From the NCBI GenBank assembly GCA_964488935.1, contig CAZAVF010000001.1, positions 753 to 64,752 of the forward strand: DNA of 64,000 bases, given 5' to 3'. The position numbers were made by a program, and so were the translations under genes. Below, in pieces: positions 3,256 through 32,476 of the stretch. Under the pieces are notes generated by a model. The model was given only the letters and a program-made list of their open reading frames with translations. It searched no databases and was not told the origin of the DNA. Position 1 is the stretch's first letter. Every line of letters begins with the position of its first letter. This DNA comes from an uncultured Planctomycetales bacterium (GTDB lineage Bacteria; Omnitrophota; Gorgyraeia; Gygaellales; Profunditerraquicolaceae).

Positions 3256-5146
3256 GTTCCCCTTCCGTTCTCCCGCCCTCTGCAGGACTAAGTTTCCTCA
3301 GATAGATCATGATCAGGGATATCGCGGCCGGGGTGACCCCCGATATCCGGGAAGCCTGGCCGAGATTGACCGGCCTTAGAAAACCGAGTTTCTCGCTGAT
3401 CTCCCTGGATATCCCGCAGATAAGACGATAATCGATACCGCCGGGAAGTTTTATCTTCTCAAGATTACGGAAACGCTGGACCTCGGCTTCCTGTCTCTTT
3501 ATGAATCCCGCGTACTTGATCTCGGTCTCGATAAGCCGGCGCGCCGAATGCGCAACGGCGGAAATGTCCACCCCCATTTCTTCCAAGAGCCGTAAATCCA
3601 CTCCCGGCCTTCTCAACAGGTCCTCCGCCGATACGCTTTTTTCCAGCGGCCCCAGCCCTTTTTCCCGGAACAGTGCGCGGTTGCCGGCGGAAGGATTGAT
3701 GCGCAGGCGGCGCAGTATCCCGGGGGCCGAAGACAGGGCATCCGCCCGCTCTTTCGCGCGCATAAAAGAGGACTCCGGCACCAGCCCGAGCCTGTGACCT
3801 TCGGCCGATAATCTTATATCGGCATTATCCTCTCTCAGTATCAGTCTGTATTCCACGCGCGAGGTGAACATACGGTACGGCTCCGGCGTTCCTTTGGTAA
3901 CAAGGTCGTCTACAAGCACGCCTATATAACTGCCGGCCCGGTCCAGTATGAAAGGACCCTCCCCCGCGGCTTTCAAGGCGGCGTTTATGCCGGCAAGTAT
4001 CCCCTGGCCCGCCGCCTCCTCGTAACCGGTGGTGCCGTTTATCTGCCCGGCCAGGAAAAGTCCGGGGACGTCTTTCGCCTCAAGCGATGGATAGAGCTGC
4101 GTCGGGTCCACCACGGTATGCTCTATGCCGTAACCGGGCCTGATGATCTCCGCCTTTTCCAGCCCTTTGACGGAATGCAGCATTAGCAGCTGCACGTCCT
4201 CCGGCAGGCTGGTGGAAAGCCCGTTCGGGTAGATCTCTTCGCTGTCCATCCCTTCCGGCTCAAGGAAGACCTGATGGCGCTCCTTGGATGCGAACTTCAC
4301 TATCTTATCCTCGATGGAGGGACAATATCTTACCCCCGCGGCGTGTATGCGGCCGGTATAAAGAGGGGAACGGTCAAGGTTCTCCCTGATGACCCTGTGC
4401 GTATCCCGGTTTGTATACGTGATATAACAGGGGACCTGCCTGCGTTGTAGCGGGGAGGAAGCAAAAGAGAACGGCCTGGGTACGGCATCCCCTTCCTGAG
4501 CGGTCAAAGAGGAATAATCTATGCTGGAACGCCTGATCCTCGGGCAGGTCCCGGTCTTGAAACGCAGCGTCTTGAGCCCCGCAGAACGCAGAGAAGCGGT
4601 CAAGTCCGCCGAAGCCGGCTCGTTTATGCGTCCGCCGGGAAAACTGCGCAGACCTATATGTATGGTACCTTCGGTGAACGTTCCCGGGCAGAGGACCACG
4701 GCCCCGGCGGTGATCTCCGCGCCGGAGGCGGTGCGGACGCCGCGGCACCCCCCGGGAACAAGCAGAAGCCCGGACGCTTCGCCCGCCTTCACCTCGAGCC
4801 CTTCCTGCATCTTCACGGCGGAACACATATACCCGCGGTATTTTTCCTTGTCGATCTGGGCGCGGGACGACTGAACCGCCGGACCTTTCGACGCGTTGAG
4901 CACGCGGAATTGTATGCCGCAGGCGTCCGCCGCTTTTCCCATTTCCCCGCCGAGCGCGTCGACCTCCCTGACCAGTTGGCCTTTCCCGACGCCGCCGATG
5001 GCAGGATTACAGCTCATCAACCCGATATTGCCCGGGTCCAAAGTCAGCATAAGACACCTGCGTCCCATGCGGGCAGCCGCCAGGGCGGCCTCGATACCGG
5101 CATGACCGGCGCCTACGACTATGACATCATAATCATTCTTCATATT
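3221..5146 (-). CDS. mnmG: tRNA uridine 5-carboxymethylaminomethyl modification enzyme MnmG/GidA
   Basis: YDVIVVGAGHAGIEAA FAD motif, full-length MnmG homology. Track ORF starts 17 codons upstream (5197). Start re-set to MKNDYDV. Confidence 0.9.
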   Translation of the reverse strand, partial: NMKNDYDVIVVGAGHAGIEAALAAARMGRRCLMLTLDPGNIGLMSCNPAIGGVGKGQLVREVDALGGEMGKAADACGIQFRVLNASKGPAVQSSRAQIDKEKYRGYMCSAVKMQEGLEVKAGEASGLLLVPGGCRGVRTASGAEITAGAVVLCPGTFTEGTIHIGLRSFPGGRINEPASADLTASLRSAGLKTLRFKTGTCPRIRRSSIDYSSLTAQEGDAVPRPFSFASSPLQRRQVPCYITYTNRDTHRVIRENLDRSPLYTGRIHAAGVRYCPSIEDKIVKFASKERHQVFLEPEGMDSEEIYPNGLSTSLPEDVQLLMLHSVKGLEKAEIIRPGYGIEHTVVDPTQLYPSLEAKDVPGLFLAGQINGTTGYEEAAGQGILAGINAALKAAGEGPFILDRAGSYIGVLVDDLVTKGTPEPYRMFTSRVEYRLILREDNADIRLSAEGHRLGLVPESSFMRAKERADALSSAPGILRRLRINPSAGNRALFREKGLGPLEKSVSAEDLLRRPGVDLRLLEEMGVDISAVAHSARRLIETEIKYAGFIKRQEAEVQRFRNLEKIKLPGGIDYRLICGISREISEKLGFLRPVNLGQASRISGVTPAAISLIMIYLRKLSPAEGGRTEGEHEHKRKGARFG

Positions 5147-21017: not shown

Positions 21018-21401
21018 TCAATGCAGCCTCATTATCCTGGAAAGATTCATGAATCCGGCATTCTCCAGATTGATCCCCATACGGTACCCGCCGGAGGACT
21101 CCTGCTTACTCCATACCACCCTGCCCCTGGCATAAACCGGCTGCCCCTGGTCGGGAACGTTCAGCCATATCTCCAGATCGGCGGAAGACGGCAGTTCCGA
21201 ACCGGAAAGTATTCCCAGTCCGTGAGCGCTGATATCGCTCGAGACCGCTTCACCGGAAACATGCGAATACAGATCGGTATACTTGACCGGGAACCGGACC
21301 GGGATACGCTCGAACAATCTCTGGTCTTCCGGACTTCCGTCGGGCTGTTCTATATATTCCATCCATCCCGGATCTCCCCGCGGCAGATCCGCCCTGAACA
21401 A
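21018..21401 (-). CDS. PilZ domain protein (c-di-GMP binding)
   Basis: RxxxR (QRLFERIPVRF) and D-x-S-x-x-G (SDISAHGLG) PilZ motifs. Confidence 0.6.
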   Translation of the reverse strand: MFRADLPRGDPGWMEYIEQPDGSPEDQRLFERIPVRFPVKYTDLYSHVSGEAVSSDISAHGLGILSGSELPSSADLEIWLNVPDQGQPVYARGRVVWSKQESSGGYRMGINLENAGFMNLSRIMRLH

Positions 21402-21711: not shown

Positions 21712-22077
21712 TCAACTATTCTGCCTTAGGACGTGCGCCACGCCTGCGGTGACCGGGTTGGAGAGACTTATGCCGGCGCGGAAATTATCCTTCCCCTCCT
21801 GCATAGTCCACATCACTTCGCCTTTTGTATAGAACGGCTGGTGTTTATCGGAAAGGAAAAGCCAGCAATCGAGGGAAGAGCCGCATGACAACGAAGACCC
21901 GGTAGACAATCCCAGTCCCCGTATGCTTACGTCGTTAACGGTCCCCGCGGATTGTCCCTGCGCGCCCGCCAAAGAGAATTTCAGCGGAAAGCTGACCGGG
22001 ATCCTTACAAAAAACCTTCTCTCGTTCTGGTTTGCCATAGTGGAGCCCCCCCCGGGAAAGCCTCTTCTTCTAAACAA
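21712..22077 (-). CDS. PilZ domain protein (paralog)
   Basis: ERRFFVRIPV and NDVSIRGLG motifs. Two candidate starts (22077 or MANQ at 22038) flank a C7/G7 homopolymer. Confidence 0.6.
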   Translation of the reverse strand: MFRRRGFPGGGSTMANQNERRFFVRIPVSFPLKFSLAGAQGQSAGTVNDVSIRGLGLSTGSSLSCGSSLDCWLFLSDKHQPFYTKGEVMWTMQEGKDNFRAGISLSNPVTAGVAHVLRQNS

Positions 22078-22139
22078 AAACCGGAAGAGTCACTTTCCTT
22101 CCGGCTGAATCCGTGGCTATCCCCGCTTTTTGAATGCGG

Positions 22140-22302
22140 GACTAGCCGGCTTAGAAAAGAGTTTTATTATCCTTTTGCAAAAAAAGTATAACTCGAACAA
22201 TTCCTTTTGTCAAGCACAAATCTTACTGAAATCATTTGACTTTAGTATTTAGATATGATATTTCTAAAGGGTATTTTTGATGAATAATCCAAGGAGGTAA
22301 CA
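22140..22302 (+). promoter_or_regulatory. AT-rich promoter region for ftsH-like operon, with RBS AAGGAGGT at 22291-22298
   Basis: About 160 nt at roughly 70 percent AT in a 60+ percent GC genome. TTGTCA and TTGACT -35-like hexamers. Strong SD 5 nt before ATG 22303. Exact -10 not assignable. Confidence 0.4.
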
Positions 22303-23988
22303 ATGAACCTGAAGAAAGTCTCCGTTTATGTGAAATTGAACTGGGTAAAGCTGCTGCTGGTCCTGCTGGCATTAACGATGGGGACGCTCACCGTGATCGC
22401 TTTGATAGTCGGTATGAAGGCCATGGCTGGGCTGGAATCCTTCTACAAACAGATGCAGCTTTCCATGATCCCGCTGCAGATATTCATCGCCGTGGTCACC
22501 GCTTTTGTCTTCGCCTCCATTTACACCGTCTTCCACTACTGGTTCTTCTTTGCCGGGGGGATGACGAAACTCGGGCAGAAAAAGATAAAAAGCGTGGAAG
22601 TGAACGTTAAATGGGACGACGTCATAGGTATGGACGAGGTCAAGCGGGAAGCCTGGGAAGTGGTGCAGCTGCTGAAAGACCGCACGAAACTGCAGCGCGT
22701 GGGCGGACAGATCGTGAAAGGCATACTGCTCTCCGGGGCGCCGGGATGCGGAAAGACCTATCTGGCAAAGGCGATAGCCACGGAAGTAAAAATGCCCTTC
22801 CTTTCGGTGGTGGGCAGCGAGCTGGAGGGCATCATAGTCGGGCTGGGGGCGGCCAAGATCCGCTCGCTGTTCAAGGAAGCGCGCGCGCTGGCCGAACTGC
22901 ACGGCGGATGCATAATATTCATCGATGAGATAGACTCCGTGGCCAGGCCCAGGAGGGATGACGCCGGCTTCGGGGGCCAGATGAGCGCCAACGCCGCCGT
23001 CAACCAGCTGCTCACGGAGCTGGACGGCCTGCGCAAAAAAGAGAACAACCTGGTGGTGATCGGAGCCACCAACGTGGACGAGAAGGACCTCGACCCGGCG
23101 CTGATGCGGGCCGGGCGTTTCGACAGGAAAATATACATCGGGCTCCCCGGGCTTAAAGACAGAGAGAATCTTTTCGGGTTCTATCTGAAAAAGGTGCGCT
23201 GCGGAAACGACATAAGCATCAGCCAGCTGGCGCGTAAAGCGGTCTATAAAAGCCCCGCCGATATAAACAATATCGTGCGGGAAGCCGGTATAATCGCCAT
23301 CCGCAACCATAAAGACAGCATCGGCATGGCCGAGATAAACGAGGCCATGGAAAGAATAGACATGGGCTTGAGAAAATCGCTGGAGCTCAGCCCGGCGGAA
23401 AAAGAACAGGTCGCCTATCACGAAGCCGGCCACGCCATCGCCGCCTACCTGCTCCACCCCACCGACGACGTGTTCAAAGCCACCATAATACCCCGCACCG
23501 TAGGCTTTCTCGGCTACGTCTATCACCGTTCGAAGGAAGAGATGCACATACACAATAAAGAATATTACCTGGCGAATATAAAAGTGGCGATGGGTTCTTA
23601 CGCCGCCGAAATGCTGAAGTTCCGCACCACCACTTCCGGGGTCGGAGAAGACATGCATCAGGCGGCTTTCTGGGCCTATAATATGGTCTGGTGCTGGGGA
23701 ATGGGCTCTTCCGGCATGAAGGGGAATTTCAAGGAATTGAACAAAAGTTTCTCCTCCTTCTCCGCGTGGTCGCAGATGAATTTCATTTCCGAGAGAACAA
23801 AGGAAAAACTGGACGAGGACGTGCAAAACATACTTTCACAATGCCTGCAGGAAGTGGAAGACCTGCTGAAAAAAGAATCCGCGCTGCTCGACCGTTTCGC
23901 CGGGGAATTGATCGCCAAGGAGGAGCTTGATTACGACCAGATAGAGGCGATATTCAAAGATTGCGGAAAAGAACGGATAAAGAAATGA
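22303..23988 (+). CDS. FtsH-family AAA+ ATPase / M41 zinc metalloprotease paralog (short periplasmic loop)
   Basis: 2 N-terminal TM, Walker A GAPGCGKT, Walker B IIFIDEIDS, SRH region ATNVDEKDLDPALMRAGRFDRKI, HEAGHAIAAY zinc site. 561 aa, which is shorter than canonical FtsH. Confidence 0.85.
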   Translation: MNLKKVSVYVKLNWVKLLLVLLALTMGTLTVIALIVGMKAMAGLESFYKQMQLSMIPLQIFIAVVTAFVFASIYTVFHYWFFFAGGMTKLGQKKIKSVEVNVKWDDVIGMDEVKREAWEVVQLLKDRTKLQRVGGQIVKGILLSGAPGCGKTYLAKAIATEVKMPFLSVVGSELEGIIVGLGAAKIRSLFKEARALAELHGGCIIFIDEIDSVARPRRDDAGFGGQMSANAAVNQLLTELDGLRKKENNLVVIGATNVDEKDLDPALMRAGRFDRKIYIGLPGLKDRENLFGFYLKKVRCGNDISISQLARKAVYKSPADINNIVREAGIIAIRNHKDSIGMAEINEAMERIDMGLRKSLELSPAEKEQVAYHEAGHAIAAYLLHPTDDVFKATIIPRTVGFLGYVYHRSKEEMHIHNKEYYLANIKVAMGSYAAEMLKFRTTTSGVGEDMHQAAFWAYNMVWCWGMGSSGMKGNFKELNKSFSSFSAWSQMNFISERTKEKLDEDVQNILSQCLQEVEDLLKKESALLDRFAGELIAKEELDYDQIEAIFKDCGKERIKK

Positions 23989-24830
23989 GCCGTCTCCGCG
24001 CGGCATTCCTGTCCGTCTGGTTTGCCTCCGTTCTATGCGGATGTTTCTCCCTGCAGCCCACCTATACCAGGGAAAAGTCGGCGGAGGCCGTGATAGCCCT
24101 CTGCCGCAGCGAATACGGCCTGAAAACAAACGCCTGGCTCTCCGGGGACACCCTTTACGTTTATCTGCCGGTGGCGTCGCTGACGACCACGGACAAGGAG
24201 CTGGCCGGCGTGATACAGAAGGATATAAACCGTCTCGTGATCGCCGCCACCCGGGTCTGTCTGAGCATGAATCCGCGCATGGAATTCCTGGTGATCGCCG
24301 TGACCGATACCAGGCAGCACGGAATAGAATACAGGATAGTCAATTACGTCGCGGACCTGGTCAAGCTGCAGTACAATGCCATCTCCAGGAACGATTTCGC
24401 GGCGCGCAGCATAATCTCGATAACCCAGAACCCGCTGGCCATAGGAGACGAAGAGGGAAAATACATTCTTAAGGAACCTCTCAAGAAAGCCGATTTCATC
24501 TGCTCCCTGATAACGCAGAGGATAGATTACGCCGCGGCAAAACAGCGGCAGAACGCGGCGGCCATGCCCCCCAAAGCTGCGGAAGTAAGTCTAACGGAGG
24601 GCTCTTTGACGGTAGCGCTGCTGCAGCCGGTTTCAGGGGATGCGGCGTCTGTGGCCTCCGCCGCCGGATTGAAAGAAGAGGCTCTGGCCGCGGCGGCATG
24701 GGTCATCAATGAATATGGTTTCCGGGATTTCGACACGTTGAAGATATCCGGCCCGCCGCCGGATAACGCCGGATCAGAATTCAACCGCAAAGCCCTGCTT
24801 TCTCATCTGCGGGAAGCAGTACGCAAATGA
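23985..24830 (+). CDS. Lipoprotein of unknown function, translationally coupled to ftsH-like gene
   Basis: ATGA start/stop overlap with upstream gene. Signal/lipobox FASVLCGC. No recognisable domain. Confidence 0.55.
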   Translation: MSRLRAAFLSVWFASVLCGCFSLQPTYTREKSAEAVIALCRSEYGLKTNAWLSGDTLYVYLPVASLTTTDKELAGVIQKDINRLVIAATRVCLSMNPRMEFLVIAVTDTRQHGIEYRIVNYVADLVKLQYNAISRNDFAARSIISITQNPLAIGDEEGKYILKEPLKKADFICSLITQRIDYAAAKQRQNAAAMPPKAAEVSLTEGSLTVALLQPVSGDAASVASAAGLKEEALAAAAWVINEYGFRDFDTLKISGPPPDNAGSEFNRKALLSHLREAVRK

Positions 24831-24862
24831 GATCCGGCGTATAAGATAGGATTCACCGCGGA

Positions 24863-25471
24863 TCAGAAAGAGACTTTCCTGCCGTTTACGCGCAGACGTC
24901 CGCGCAGAAAAAGGTCTATCGCCAGAGGATATATCCGGTGTTCGGCTTTATGTATCCTTTTCTCCAGCCCGGCAAGGCTGTCGTTTCTTCCCACCTTTAC
25001 CGCCTCCTGCATTATTACCGGGCCGTGATCGGTCTTCTCGTCCACGAAATGCACGGTCACTCCGGTGACCTTGACCCCGTATTCGAAGGCGTCTCGTATA
25101 GCGTGGGCCCCTTTGAAAGAGGGAAGCAGGGCCGGATGGATATTGATTATGCGGTTATGGTAACGTTTAACGAAAGCGGGGCTCAGTATGCGCATGAAAC
25201 CGGCGAGGACTATAAGGTTTATGCCTCCGCGGCGCAGCGCGTACAGGATCTCCGTCTCGAACGATCCCCGGGAGGAGAAGTCACCGCGGGAGACGATCAA
25301 GGTCCTTACCCCGGACCGCGCCGCTTTGCCGATGACCGGCGCCGCAGGATTGTCGCAGACCAAAAGCGCGATCTCCGCTCTCAACGCCCCGCTCTTCACC
25401 GCTCTAACTATGGAGAGGAAATTGCTCCCCGCGCCGGAAGCGAACACGGCTATCCTGGCTTTTCTTCTCAT
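24863..25471 (-). CDS. purN: Phosphoribosylglycinamide formyltransferase
   Basis: IAVFASGAGSN, INIHPALLP, HFVDEKTDHGPVI motifs. Start re-set to MRRKARI. Confidence 0.85.
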   Translation of the reverse strand: MRRKARIAVFASGAGSNFLSIVRAVKSGALRAEIALLVCDNPAAPVIGKAARSGVRTLIVSRGDFSSRGSFETEILYALRRGGINLIVLAGFMRILSPAFVKRYHNRIINIHPALLPSFKGAHAIRDAFEYGVKVTGVTVHFVDEKTDHGPVIMQEAVKVGRNDSLAGLEKRIHKAEHRIYPLAIDLFLRGRLRVNGRKVSF

Positions 25472-31742: not shown

Positions 31743-31815
31743 GTCAAATATGGAGCCGATGAGTGGATTTGAACCACCGGCCCGCGCTTTACGAAAGCGC
31801 TGCTCTACCAACTGA
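31743..31815 (-). tRNA. tRNA-Thr (anticodon CGU)
   Basis: Minus-strand GCCGATGTAGCTCAGTTGGTAGAGCAGCGCTTTCGTAAAGCGCGGGCCGGTGGTTCAAATCCACTCATCGGCT; cloverleaf with 7-bp acceptor, anticodon loop UUCGUAA; near-identical to E. coli tRNA-Thr(CGU). CCA not fully encoded (TCCT). Coordinates within 1-2 nt. Confidence 0.85.
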
Positions 31816-32026
31816 GCTACATCGGCATAAAACGGCAAGTATCGTTGCCCCTTAAGGGCGACAAGCTGCAAACCGGTATGATTATAACAGCTTTATCGGA
31901 ATAGTCAACAGAGGGAAATCCGGAAAAACTGGTTCTGGGTTCTGAAAAAACAAAAACGCTTATTATATATATAGAATTTATATCTGTTTCTTTTAGAACC
32001 CGGCACCTACAACCTAAAACCTGTAT

Positions 32027-32476
32027 TTACGCTGCCGCCAGCCGCGCCTTGACCATCTCGCTTACCTGGCGGGCGTCGGCCGAAGCCCCGGTCCTGGAGG
32101 TCACCTCTTTCATCACCCGGCCCATATCTTTAAGCCCTGAGGCGCCCAGGGAAGCTATACTCTCTTCTATTATCCGCGAAAGCTCAGCCCCGGACAACTG
32201 CGGGGGCAGATAGGCTTTCAATATCCCGCTCTCCGTTTCTTCCTTATCTGCGAGATCGGGACGGTTCCCCTGCCTGAACTGCTGTATGGAATCCTCGCGC
32301 CGCTTTATCTGCTTCTTTATCACCGCTATGCAGTCCTCATCGTCCAGCAGGTCCCTGTTCTTGTTCATCGCCACGTTCTTGAACTCGGCCCTCAGAAAAC
32401 TCAGGACCGAGGATTTAAGACTGTCCTTGCTTTTAAGGGCTTCTTTATAATCGCCGAAAATCTTCTCTTCAAGCAT
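32027..32476 (-). CDS. GatB/YqeY domain protein
   Basis: Typical YqeY-like helical protein (LKSKD...AVIKKQIKRR..., C-terminal GatB-like). Confidence 0.75.
   Translation of the reverse strand: MLEEKIFGDYKEALKSKDSLKSSVLSFLRAEFKNVAMNKNRDLLDDEDCIAVIKKQIKRREDSIQQFRQGNRPDLADKEETESGILKAYLPPQLSGAELSRIIEESIASLGASGLKDMGRVMKEVTSRTGASADARQVSEMVKARLAAA

Follow-up and report, generated by a model that had tools for sequence, protein, structure and literature searches.

A codon-usage-scored gene call, which overlooks a few short minus-strand genes, places only two genes on the plus strand of the 64-kb window (the whole stretch of DNA analysed here) versus 56 on the minus strand, in agreement with the sequence-only reading, which had singled out these two as the only plus-strand genes. 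The first gene (22303..23988, plus strand) encodes an FtsH-like ATP-dependent zinc metalloprotease of 561 aa in which two transmembrane (TM) helices separated by a short loop are followed by an AAA and an M41 domain. The second gene (23985..24830, plus strand; ORF 23961-24830) encodes a lipoprotein of 281 aa from an undescribed family. The ATG of the lipoprotein gene at 23985 overlaps the TGA of the protease gene at 23986-23988 in an ATGA. The operon is followed, after a gap of 32 nt, by a convergent purN gene for GAR formyltransferase (24863..25471, minus strand; Formyl_trans_N) and is preceded by an AT-rich divergent promoter region (22078..22302; 36% GC overall) that separates it from a PilZ-domain gene on the minus strand.

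This AT-rich region carries two back-to-back sigma-70-type promoters. The operon promoter (22236..22264, plus strand) consists of a -35 element TTGACT (22236-22241) and a -10 element TATTTC (22259-22264) with a spacer of 17 nt that ends in TGA, i.e. an extended -10 promoter, and a Shine-Dalgarno sequence AAGGAGG can be read 5 nt 5' of the ATG (22291..22297, plus strand). Across 8 aligned upstream regions, taken from loci with a protease identity from 100% down to ~50%, the TTGAC and TATGnTA columns are invariant. The second promoter, TTGACA-17-TATACT (22213..22185, minus strand), serves the neighbouring PilZ gene and not the operon, and the PilZ leader contains a terminator-like hairpin (hairpin 22106..22079, leader and promoter 22079..22213, minus strand). 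An Rfam scan of the AT-rich region gave no RNA family, even at E<=1, and, therefore, no known riboswitch is present there.

The PilZ gene (21712..22038, minus strand) encodes a protein of 108 aa from the ATG at 22038 with a Pfam PilZ match (E 1.7e-10) and the RxxxR and DxSxxG motifs, and its orthologs likewise have 108 aa. Two divergent PilZ genes had been proposed upstream of the operon, and both minus-strand ORFs are indeed Pfam PilZ proteins (E 1e-10 and 1e-11). The PilZ neighbours are confined to close relatives and are absent at more distant loci; thus, they lie outside the conserved module, and a c-di-GMP link in which the PilZ genes would form part of this module was rejected.

The atypical composition of the AT-rich upstream DNA had been taken to suggest horizontal acquisition or a strongly regulated promoter; in the former reading, this DNA and the orientation of the operon against all its neighbours would mark a horizontally acquired island. 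The 160 nt at 22151-22310 are the most AT-rich of the window (27.5% GC compared to a mean of 56.4%, sd 5.2%, over all 160-nt windows of the 64 kb, the second-lowest having 33.8%), and this part of the description stands. The composition of the genes themselves is ordinary. The GC contents of the protease and lipoprotein coding sequences (54% and 57%) and their GC3 values (0.73 and 0.69) are like those of the neighbouring genes and, therefore, "island" is a misnomer. Moreover, the codon-usage correlations of the two genes (0.90 and 0.81) compare with 0.80-0.94 in other genes of the window, and the tetranucleotide distance of the operon is at the 71st percentile. A search for an integrase, a tRNA or repeats at the borders of the operon was negative, the only tRNA of the window being 7 kb away. 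Finally, relatives whose proteases are as little as 50% identical share the genes, their orientation and the promoter, and all related Omnitrophota loci examined retain the pair together with the convergent purN. Given these observations, horizontal acquisition is unsupported, and we regard it as highly improbable. Rather than foreign DNA, the AT-rich stretch represents a conserved extended -10 promoter of the sigma-70 type that lies back to back with the PilZ promoter.

The protease has the domains expected of an FtsH-family AAA+/M41 protease, and all motifs named in the sequence-only reading were located. The AAA domain (aa 141-281; Pfam PF00004, E 3e-37, 128 bits) is followed by AAA_lid_3 and by Peptidase_M41 at aa 362-550 (PF01434, E 4e-41; 141.5 bits with a cutoff of 29.9). 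Walker A (GAPGCGKT, aa 145-152), Walker B (IIFIDEID, aa 204-211), the second region of homology (SRH; aa 255-278, with RAGRFDR) and the HEAGH zinc-binding motif (aa 373-377; 23419..23433, plus strand) are present, and Asp450 within SGVGEDM (aa 445-451) aligns with the canonical third zinc ligand. With no loss among the residues of the ATPase and of the zinc site, the sequence most likely specifies an active membrane protease that is hexameric and driven by ATP.

The membrane anchor (22348..22557, plus strand) was delineated by a simple hydropathy scan rather than by a topology predictor and comprises TM1 (aa 16-38), a periplasmic loop of ~16 aa (aa 39-54) that includes LESFYKQMQLS, and TM2 (aa 55-85). 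The ES[FY] motif of the loop (here E45, S46 and F47) and TM2 are strongly conserved in short and long forms of the protease. Aligned to canonical FtsHs, the protease shows a gap in place of their periplasmic domain of ~70 aa, Pfam gave no match to FtsH_ext (PF06480) in the protease, and the match to TIGR01241 begins only at profile position 106. Thus, hydropathy, Pfam and alignment agree with the earlier description of two TM helices joined by a minimal loop without a periplasmic domain.

FtsH is the universal membrane-anchored AAA+ protease. The protease analysed here shares with canonical FtsH (E. coli, T. maritima; MEROPS M41) the two N-terminal TM helices, the single AAA module, the HEXXH motif and the domain order, and the solved structures closest to it in sequence are those of FtsH (7zbh, E 1e-91; 2ce7, E 1e-86). 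It differs from canonical FtsH in lacking the ~70-aa periplasmic domain and in having IVG rather than FVG in the pore loop. In the pore-1 loop (EGIIVGLG, aa 175-182; 22825..22848, plus strand), the IIVG at aa 177-180 has Ile in place of the canonical aromatic residue (MFVG in FtsH). Among the short-form relatives, the pattern was located in 21, of which 20 have (I/M)IVG, and not in 4 more, and the deeper relatives L009 and L010 retain M[FY]VG. The Ile in the pore loop of the sub-clade may point to an altered grip on substrates or an altered specificity.

Because the protein has only 561 aa and lacks the periplasmic domain, the sequence-only reading had concluded that it is an accessory paralog and not the housekeeping FtsH. 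In a fuller version of this idea, a specialised paralog functions beside a canonical ftsH with a periplasmic domain in the same genome, and the lipoprotein adapts it to a few substrates. Consistent with this scenario, the protease is only ~36% identical to canonical FtsHs, it scores 428.7 bits on TIGR01241, i.e. under the equivalog cutoff of 600, and it carries Ile for Phe in the pore loop, as does paraplegin (PMC2734466). However, the missing periplasmic domain is common to all Omnitrophota relatives aligned, and a score under the cutoff to all those tested, in both cases including relatives with a canonical pore loop (487-498 bits). The variants all occupy the same orthologous slot, neither the 64-kb window nor the flanks of the related loci examined contain another M41 gene, and most bacteria have a single ftsH (PMC9020784). 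Accessory status does not follow from the loss of a domain that is lost in all aligned relatives of a gene kept in the same slot, and we consider the paralog scenario rather unlikely.

In Pseudomonas aeruginosa clone C, the FtsH2 xenolog is a documented accessory FtsH beside a housekeeping one, i.e. a case of the kind proposed in the sequence-only reading, and it is horizontally acquired (PMC10850787); at the locus analysed here, composition and synteny favour vertical descent. A contig search with the protease returned only two loci of the Omnitrophota type, the matches being swamped by the universal CIIFIDEI motif, and K03798 is listed in the supplementary material of Seymour et al. 2023 without copy numbers. 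In PADLOC and PHROG searches the protease matches only generic AAA models and none specific for anti-phage defence or phages. Our literature search returned nothing relevant on FtsH in Omnitrophota, and none of the papers searched describes an FtsH that lacks the periplasmic domain or carries tandem AAA modules.

A parallel to the pore loop is found in paraplegin (SPG7) of the mitochondrial m-AAA protease, an FtsH-family subunit with a non-aromatic pore loop that has Ile at this position (PMC2734466); unlike the protease described here, paraplegin is eukaryotic and is not known to have a lipoprotein partner. The same locus in other Omnitrophota encodes proteases with two to five AAA modules, and at L110 and L111 these multi-AAA versions show an apparent in-frame stop and an apparent frameshift. 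In some relatives a unit of the type found here is fused with another unit that carries an aromatic pore loop (AAA-M41-AAA-M41 fusions), and in a tree of AAA modules the type of protease in the window groups with unit 1 of these fusions and unit 2 is more canonical, a pattern that also fits the paralog scenario. Paraplegin is not known to function without a second FtsH-type subunit, AFG3L2, with which it forms a hetero-oligomer. Based on this precedent and on the fusions with an aromatic-loop unit, a partner FtsH elsewhere in the genome is possible, and by analogy the sub-clade might need a second subunit. We treat this likeness as a lead and not as evidence.

As judged from its sequence, the product of the second gene is a lipoprotein that carries a signal peptide and is predicted to be lipid-modified at Cys20: the N-terminal MSRLR is followed by a hydrophobic stretch and the lipobox VLCGC, with Cys20 at nt 24042-24044. 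Among 105 relatives, Cys20 is kept in 99% and the Gly at -1 in 87%, and the residue at +2 is rarely Asp. The family comprises 645 clusters at 50% identity. Searches with the lipoprotein against Pfam, NCBIfam, PHROGs and PADLOC gave no match, and a profile search with the family against PDB sequences was also negative; the earlier description as a lipoprotein without a known domain, whose start overlaps the protease stop, thus holds. In the AlphaFold model (pLDDT 92.3) two alpha+beta domains are predicted to begin ~5-8 residues past the lipid anchor, giving a short tether, with a helix from residue 29 as the first modelled structured element. D124 and R141 are invariant in the family, D108, E137, D155 and R179 are near-invariant, and Y244 is also conserved.

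Three possible relationships of the lipoprotein found no support. Firstly, it does not appear to be a detached FtsH periplasmic domain (hhalign of the family profile with the N-terminal parts of 68 canonical FtsHs: probability 0.65%, E 0.088), and there are no FtsH chains among the top 50 Foldseek matches in the PDB. Secondly, an HflK/HflC-type modulator would be expected to contain Band_7, and Pfam finds no domain, Band_7 included, in the lipoprotein or its 105 relatives. Canonical FtsH has the SPFH (Band_7) proteins HflK/C, and the periplasmic protein linked to the protease described here belongs instead to a new lipoprotein family. Thirdly, the lipoprotein is similar to CamS-type lipoproteins (PDB 3n2q and 4hn3, the top Foldseek matches) in size and in having several alpha+beta domains. 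Kinship to these proteins is unsupported, since the best Foldseek match is not significant (E 1.9e-3, TM 0.22, rmsd 17.7 A, 10% identity) and the Pfam CamS domain is found in none of the 105 relatives.

Evidence for a connection between the two proteins comes from their genomic context. In a metagenome search seeded with the lipoprotein alignment A1 alone, the protease gene is immediately upstream and on the same strand at all loci (17/17), purN is present at 15 of these 17 (the remaining two contigs end too soon), and the pair is also adjacent at about 10 further loci with a protease identity down to ~50%. The order FtsH-like protease, lipoprotein and convergent purN is kept, with Formyl_trans_N downstream at all related loci that extend far enough, and the upstream neighbours vary (ABC/PilZ, enolase/DivIC, MreBCD). 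The reading frames overlap by 4-56 nt at most loci examined (that of the window, L002, L005-L007, L009, L010, L089, L092 and L110) and are apart at P0131 (6 nt) and L091 (36 nt). Adjacency also holds across protease architectures of one to five AAA modules. Almost all named relatives are Candidatus Omnitrophota, and the NCBI proteins MFZ2385829.1 and MFA5320006.1 lead to assemblies of close relatives. Combining this synteny with the typical GC3, codon usage and tetranucleotides, we conclude that the two genes are an old, vertically inherited core operon of the phylum Omnitrophota.

This conserved coupling bears out the proposal that the lipoprotein is tied to the protease and makes it probably a dedicated periplasmic partner. 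Alternatively, the lipoprotein could be merely co-transcribed, e.g. with a structural or transport function in the envelope, or it could be a substrate or sensor of the protease rather than a structural partner. Its lack of a fold or sequence tie to known FtsH modulators and its much faster evolution (18-32% identity across relatives compared to 50-77% for the proteases) are in line with this alternative, and the conserved charged residues could form an active or ligand-binding site. Given that the lipoprotein gene is adjacent at every locus examined, irrespective of the number of AAA modules and usually with overlapping reading frames, and that nothing of the protease but a short, highly conserved loop is exposed to the periplasm, we judge the alternative to be quite unlikely.

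In total, we suggest, with a probability of roughly 0.6, that a divergent FtsH-type protease without a periplasmic domain and a lipoprotein as its periplasmic partner constitute a core Omnitrophota operon. The protease combines a membrane anchor of two helices in N-in orientation with a single AAA+ unfoldase module and an M41 zinc protease. In the proposed model, the gene overlap would couple translation, and synthesis of the lipoprotein would, therefore, keep pace with that of the protease. On the periplasmic side of the inner membrane, the lipoprotein may then lie against the conserved ES[FY] loop of the ring formed by the protease and stand in, in trans, for the built-in periplasmic domain and HflK/C of canonical FtsH, where it may stabilise the ring or gate or select membrane-protein substrates. 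How the periplasmic side of FtsH and its partners control substrate entry is an open question (PMC9020784). More tentatively, we propose as a possible extension of this model a "split" FtsH of Omnitrophota, in which a separately encoded but co-translated lipoprotein, representing a new fold family, has taken the place of the periplasmic module and docks on the ES[FY] loop to control the entry of membrane proteins, and in which the locus has repeatedly been rebuilt by duplication of AAA or AAA-M41 units to give one to five AAA modules.

These genes are currently annotated by NCBI as "AAA family ATPase" or "hypothetical protein", and among the cluster members of the protease, named "AAA family ATPase" by NCBI, one is named "cell division protease FtsH" by JGI. 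The operon provides the first functional context for an unannotated protein family of at least 645 clusters. The phylum-wide loss of the periplasmic domain, with a linked lipoprotein in its place, is a natural experiment on the purpose of this domain, and the variable number of AAA modules at one locus is relevant to how AAA+ rings stack and cooperate. If the "split" reading is true, Omnitrophota would possess FtsH proteases with multi-tier or concatenated rings.

The FtsH-like protease ORF (22303-23988, plus strand, 561 aa) and the lipoprotein ORF (plus strand, from the ATG at 23985 to 24830), the start of which overlaps the protease TGA in an ATGA, are the only plus-strand genes called in the window. 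Given that 56 of the 58 genes called by codon-usage scoring lie on the minus strand and that the cumulative GC skew falls steadily across positions 1-64000, the operon is probably oriented head-on to replication. The operon also opposes nearly all of its neighbours in every related locus examined.

We compared the loci of close relatives (L002-L005), the more distant loci L006 (GCA_001805465.1) and L007, those of the GTDB representatives L009 and L010, and the contigs L089, L091, L092 and P0131. All share a core in which an FtsH-like gene is followed on the same strand by a 260-340-aa ORF without a Pfam domain, usually overlapping it, and then by a convergent purN, while the upstream genes differ by locus (ABC transporter and PilZ, enolase and DivIC, or MreBCD). 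The downstream ORFs are homologs of the window lipoprotein (18-32% identity), and the proteases are 50-77% identical. Of the 17 loci identified by scanning metagenomes with the lipoprotein only, all have the protease immediately upstream and 15 have purN downstream; the two remaining contigs stop too early. The lipoprotein gene is obligatorily linked to the protease gene, usually with translational overlap, and the proposal in the sequence-only reading that the lipoprotein is a dedicated partner gains strong comparative support.

In the window, purN (24863-25471, minus strand) is separated from the lipoprotein gene by 32 nt (24831-24862); in several relatives there is no gap, and the two genes share 14-42 nt at their 3' ends (L006:10466-10483; L007:10430-10471; L089:6479-6492). 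Protease, lipoprotein and purN stay together phylum-wide without an obvious functional reason. Named homologs of both proteins are from Candidatus Omnitrophota in almost all cases. The L009 record (CAYGZJ010000024.1), titled 'uncultured Planctomycetales bacterium', contains an Omnitrophota-type locus (enolase, short FtsH-like, lipoprotein, purN, rnfB, rnfA), likely reflecting a taxonomic mislabel; alternatively, the module extends beyond Omnitrophota.

Pfam domains of the protease are AAA (aa 141-281), AAA_lid_3 and Peptidase_M41 (aa 362-550), and the protein retains Walker A, Walker B, a second region of homology carrying both arginines, and HEAGH, as well as an Asp that aligns to the third zinc ligand of canonical FtsH. 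The hydrophobic segments at aa 16-38 and 55-85 are separated by approximately 16 residues, the match to the FtsH equivalog profile TIGR01241 begins at profile position 106, and alignment with seven canonical FtsHs shows that a periplasmic domain of approximately 70 aa is missing. These features describe an intact FtsH-type ATPase/protease with a predicted two-helix anchor and hardly any periplasmic exposure. The regions of the protein conserved best include TM2 and the short periplasmic loop (LESFYKQ[LM]Q..), whose ES[FY] motif occurs in the short and the long forms alike. Identity to canonical FtsHs of many phyla is only ~36%, and because the TIGR01241 score is 428.7 bits against a cutoff of 600, the NCBI name is 'AAA family ATPase'; deeper Omnitrophota versions likewise score below the cutoff (487-498 bits). 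Whereas the pore-1 loop of canonical FtsH is MFVG, that of the window's sub-clade (66-100% identity) is (I/M)IVG; paraplegin, Lon and p97-D1 share the Ile at this position, which has been called a substrate-specificity determinant (PMC2734466).

The ORFs, domains, strand bias and AT-rich stretch described in the sequence-only reading are all borne out, but its suggestion of an AT-rich island acquired horizontally is rejected, as the coding composition is ordinary. Coding GC (54% for the protease, 57% for the lipoprotein) and GC3 (0.73 and 0.69) are similar to those of neighbouring genes, codon-usage correlations to the long genes of the window are 0.90 and 0.81 (0.80-0.94 for other genes), and in tetranucleotide distance the two-gene block ranks at the 71st percentile among windows of its size. 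AT-richness is confined to the 225-nt intergenic spacer, and 22151-22310 has the lowest GC content (27.5%) among 160-nt windows of the 64 kb (mean 56.4%, sd 5.2%). The second most AT-rich 160 nt (31870-32029, 33.8% GC) adjoins the sole tRNA gene of the window (31754-31826, minus strand).

The spacer, which matches no Rfam family, contains two promoters back to back: (i) the operon promoter (22236-22264, plus strand; TTGACT-17-TATTTC with a TGn extension) and (ii) a near-consensus PilZ promoter (within 22036-22213, minus strand; TTGACA-17-TATACT). Across eight aligned upstream regions, including those of loci with proteases only ~50% identical, the operon promoter is invariant at its -35 and TGnTA bases; judged by its sequence, this promoter is conserved and strong. 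A Shine-Dalgarno sequence, AAGGAGG, is read 5 nt before the protease ATG (plus strand). The two minus-strand ORFs directly upstream (21018-21362 and 21712-22038) both encode small PilZ domain proteins with the RxxxR and DxSxxG c-di-GMP-binding motifs kept; this pair is present in the closest relatives only (L002-L005) and absent from more distant loci. Two hairpins in the PilZ leader of ~140 nt (minus strand, within 22036-22213) are conserved among close relatives; the second resembles a terminator and precedes a U tract (22106..22079). Pairing of their 5' arms, CCGGCU and AGCCGG, could form an antiterminator. With a folding z-score of -2.77, no covariation to judge by and no Rfam match, the leader may act as an attenuator or as an undescribed riboswitch.

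Elsewhere in the Omnitrophota, the syntenic slot of the protease gene is occupied by FtsH-like genes with extra modules, of which no description was found in a literature search. An AAA-AAA-M41 form of ~830 aa is common (e.g. 827 aa, L089:2993-5476); other loci encode a TM-AAA-M41-AAA-M41 protein of 1021 aa (L091:7872-10937), three AAA modules with M41 downstream in a different frame (L111:1826-6146), and five Walker A motifs within one frame that a single in-frame stop at 4105-4107 interrupts (L110:2170-7002). L089, L091 and L110 have an ORF of ~260-340 aa in the lipoprotein's position, with homology confirmed for L089 and L091. All architectural variants sit in one and the same slot, no second FtsH copy is present within the 64-kb window, and the prior favours a single ftsH per genome (PMC9020784). 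We put at roughly 0.6 the probability that the protease is the sole FtsH-family gene of the genome; the status of accessory paralog, as first suggested, is unproven. Against a single gene, in a neighbour-joining tree of AAA modules the window's type groups with unit 1 of the AAA-M41-AAA-M41 fusions and unit 2 is nearer canonical FtsH, and a separate partner subunit for the protease is therefore possible.

The lipoprotein has no Pfam domain. Searching 1.84 billion representative proteins with a profile (E<=0.001) gave a family of 645 clusters of similar length throughout; among 105 members no consistent Pfam match turned up, and 99% of these relatives retain the lipobox Cys20 and 87% the Gly before it. 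The confident AlphaFold model (pLDDT 92.3, pTM 0.87; input alignment of 105 sequences) predicts two alpha+beta domains, both with an alpha-beta-beta-alpha-beta-beta arrangement, and the first helix begins only nine residues past the lipobox Cys. Foldseek against the PDB returned nothing below E 1e-3, the best match, a CamS-type lipoprotein, reaching a TM of only 0.22; the family profile was negative against PDB sequences, as was hhalign against 68 canonical FtsHs (N-terminal region).

The lipoprotein could alternatively be a sensor or substrate of the protease, or be functionally unrelated to it. We favor a model in which a very short linker would hold the lipoprotein at the inner membrane's outer leaflet, and the lipoprotein would bind the protease ring at its conserved loop. 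In canonical FtsH, stabilisation or gating belongs to the built-in periplasmic domain and HflK/C; in these Omnitrophota, the lipoprotein may assume this role.
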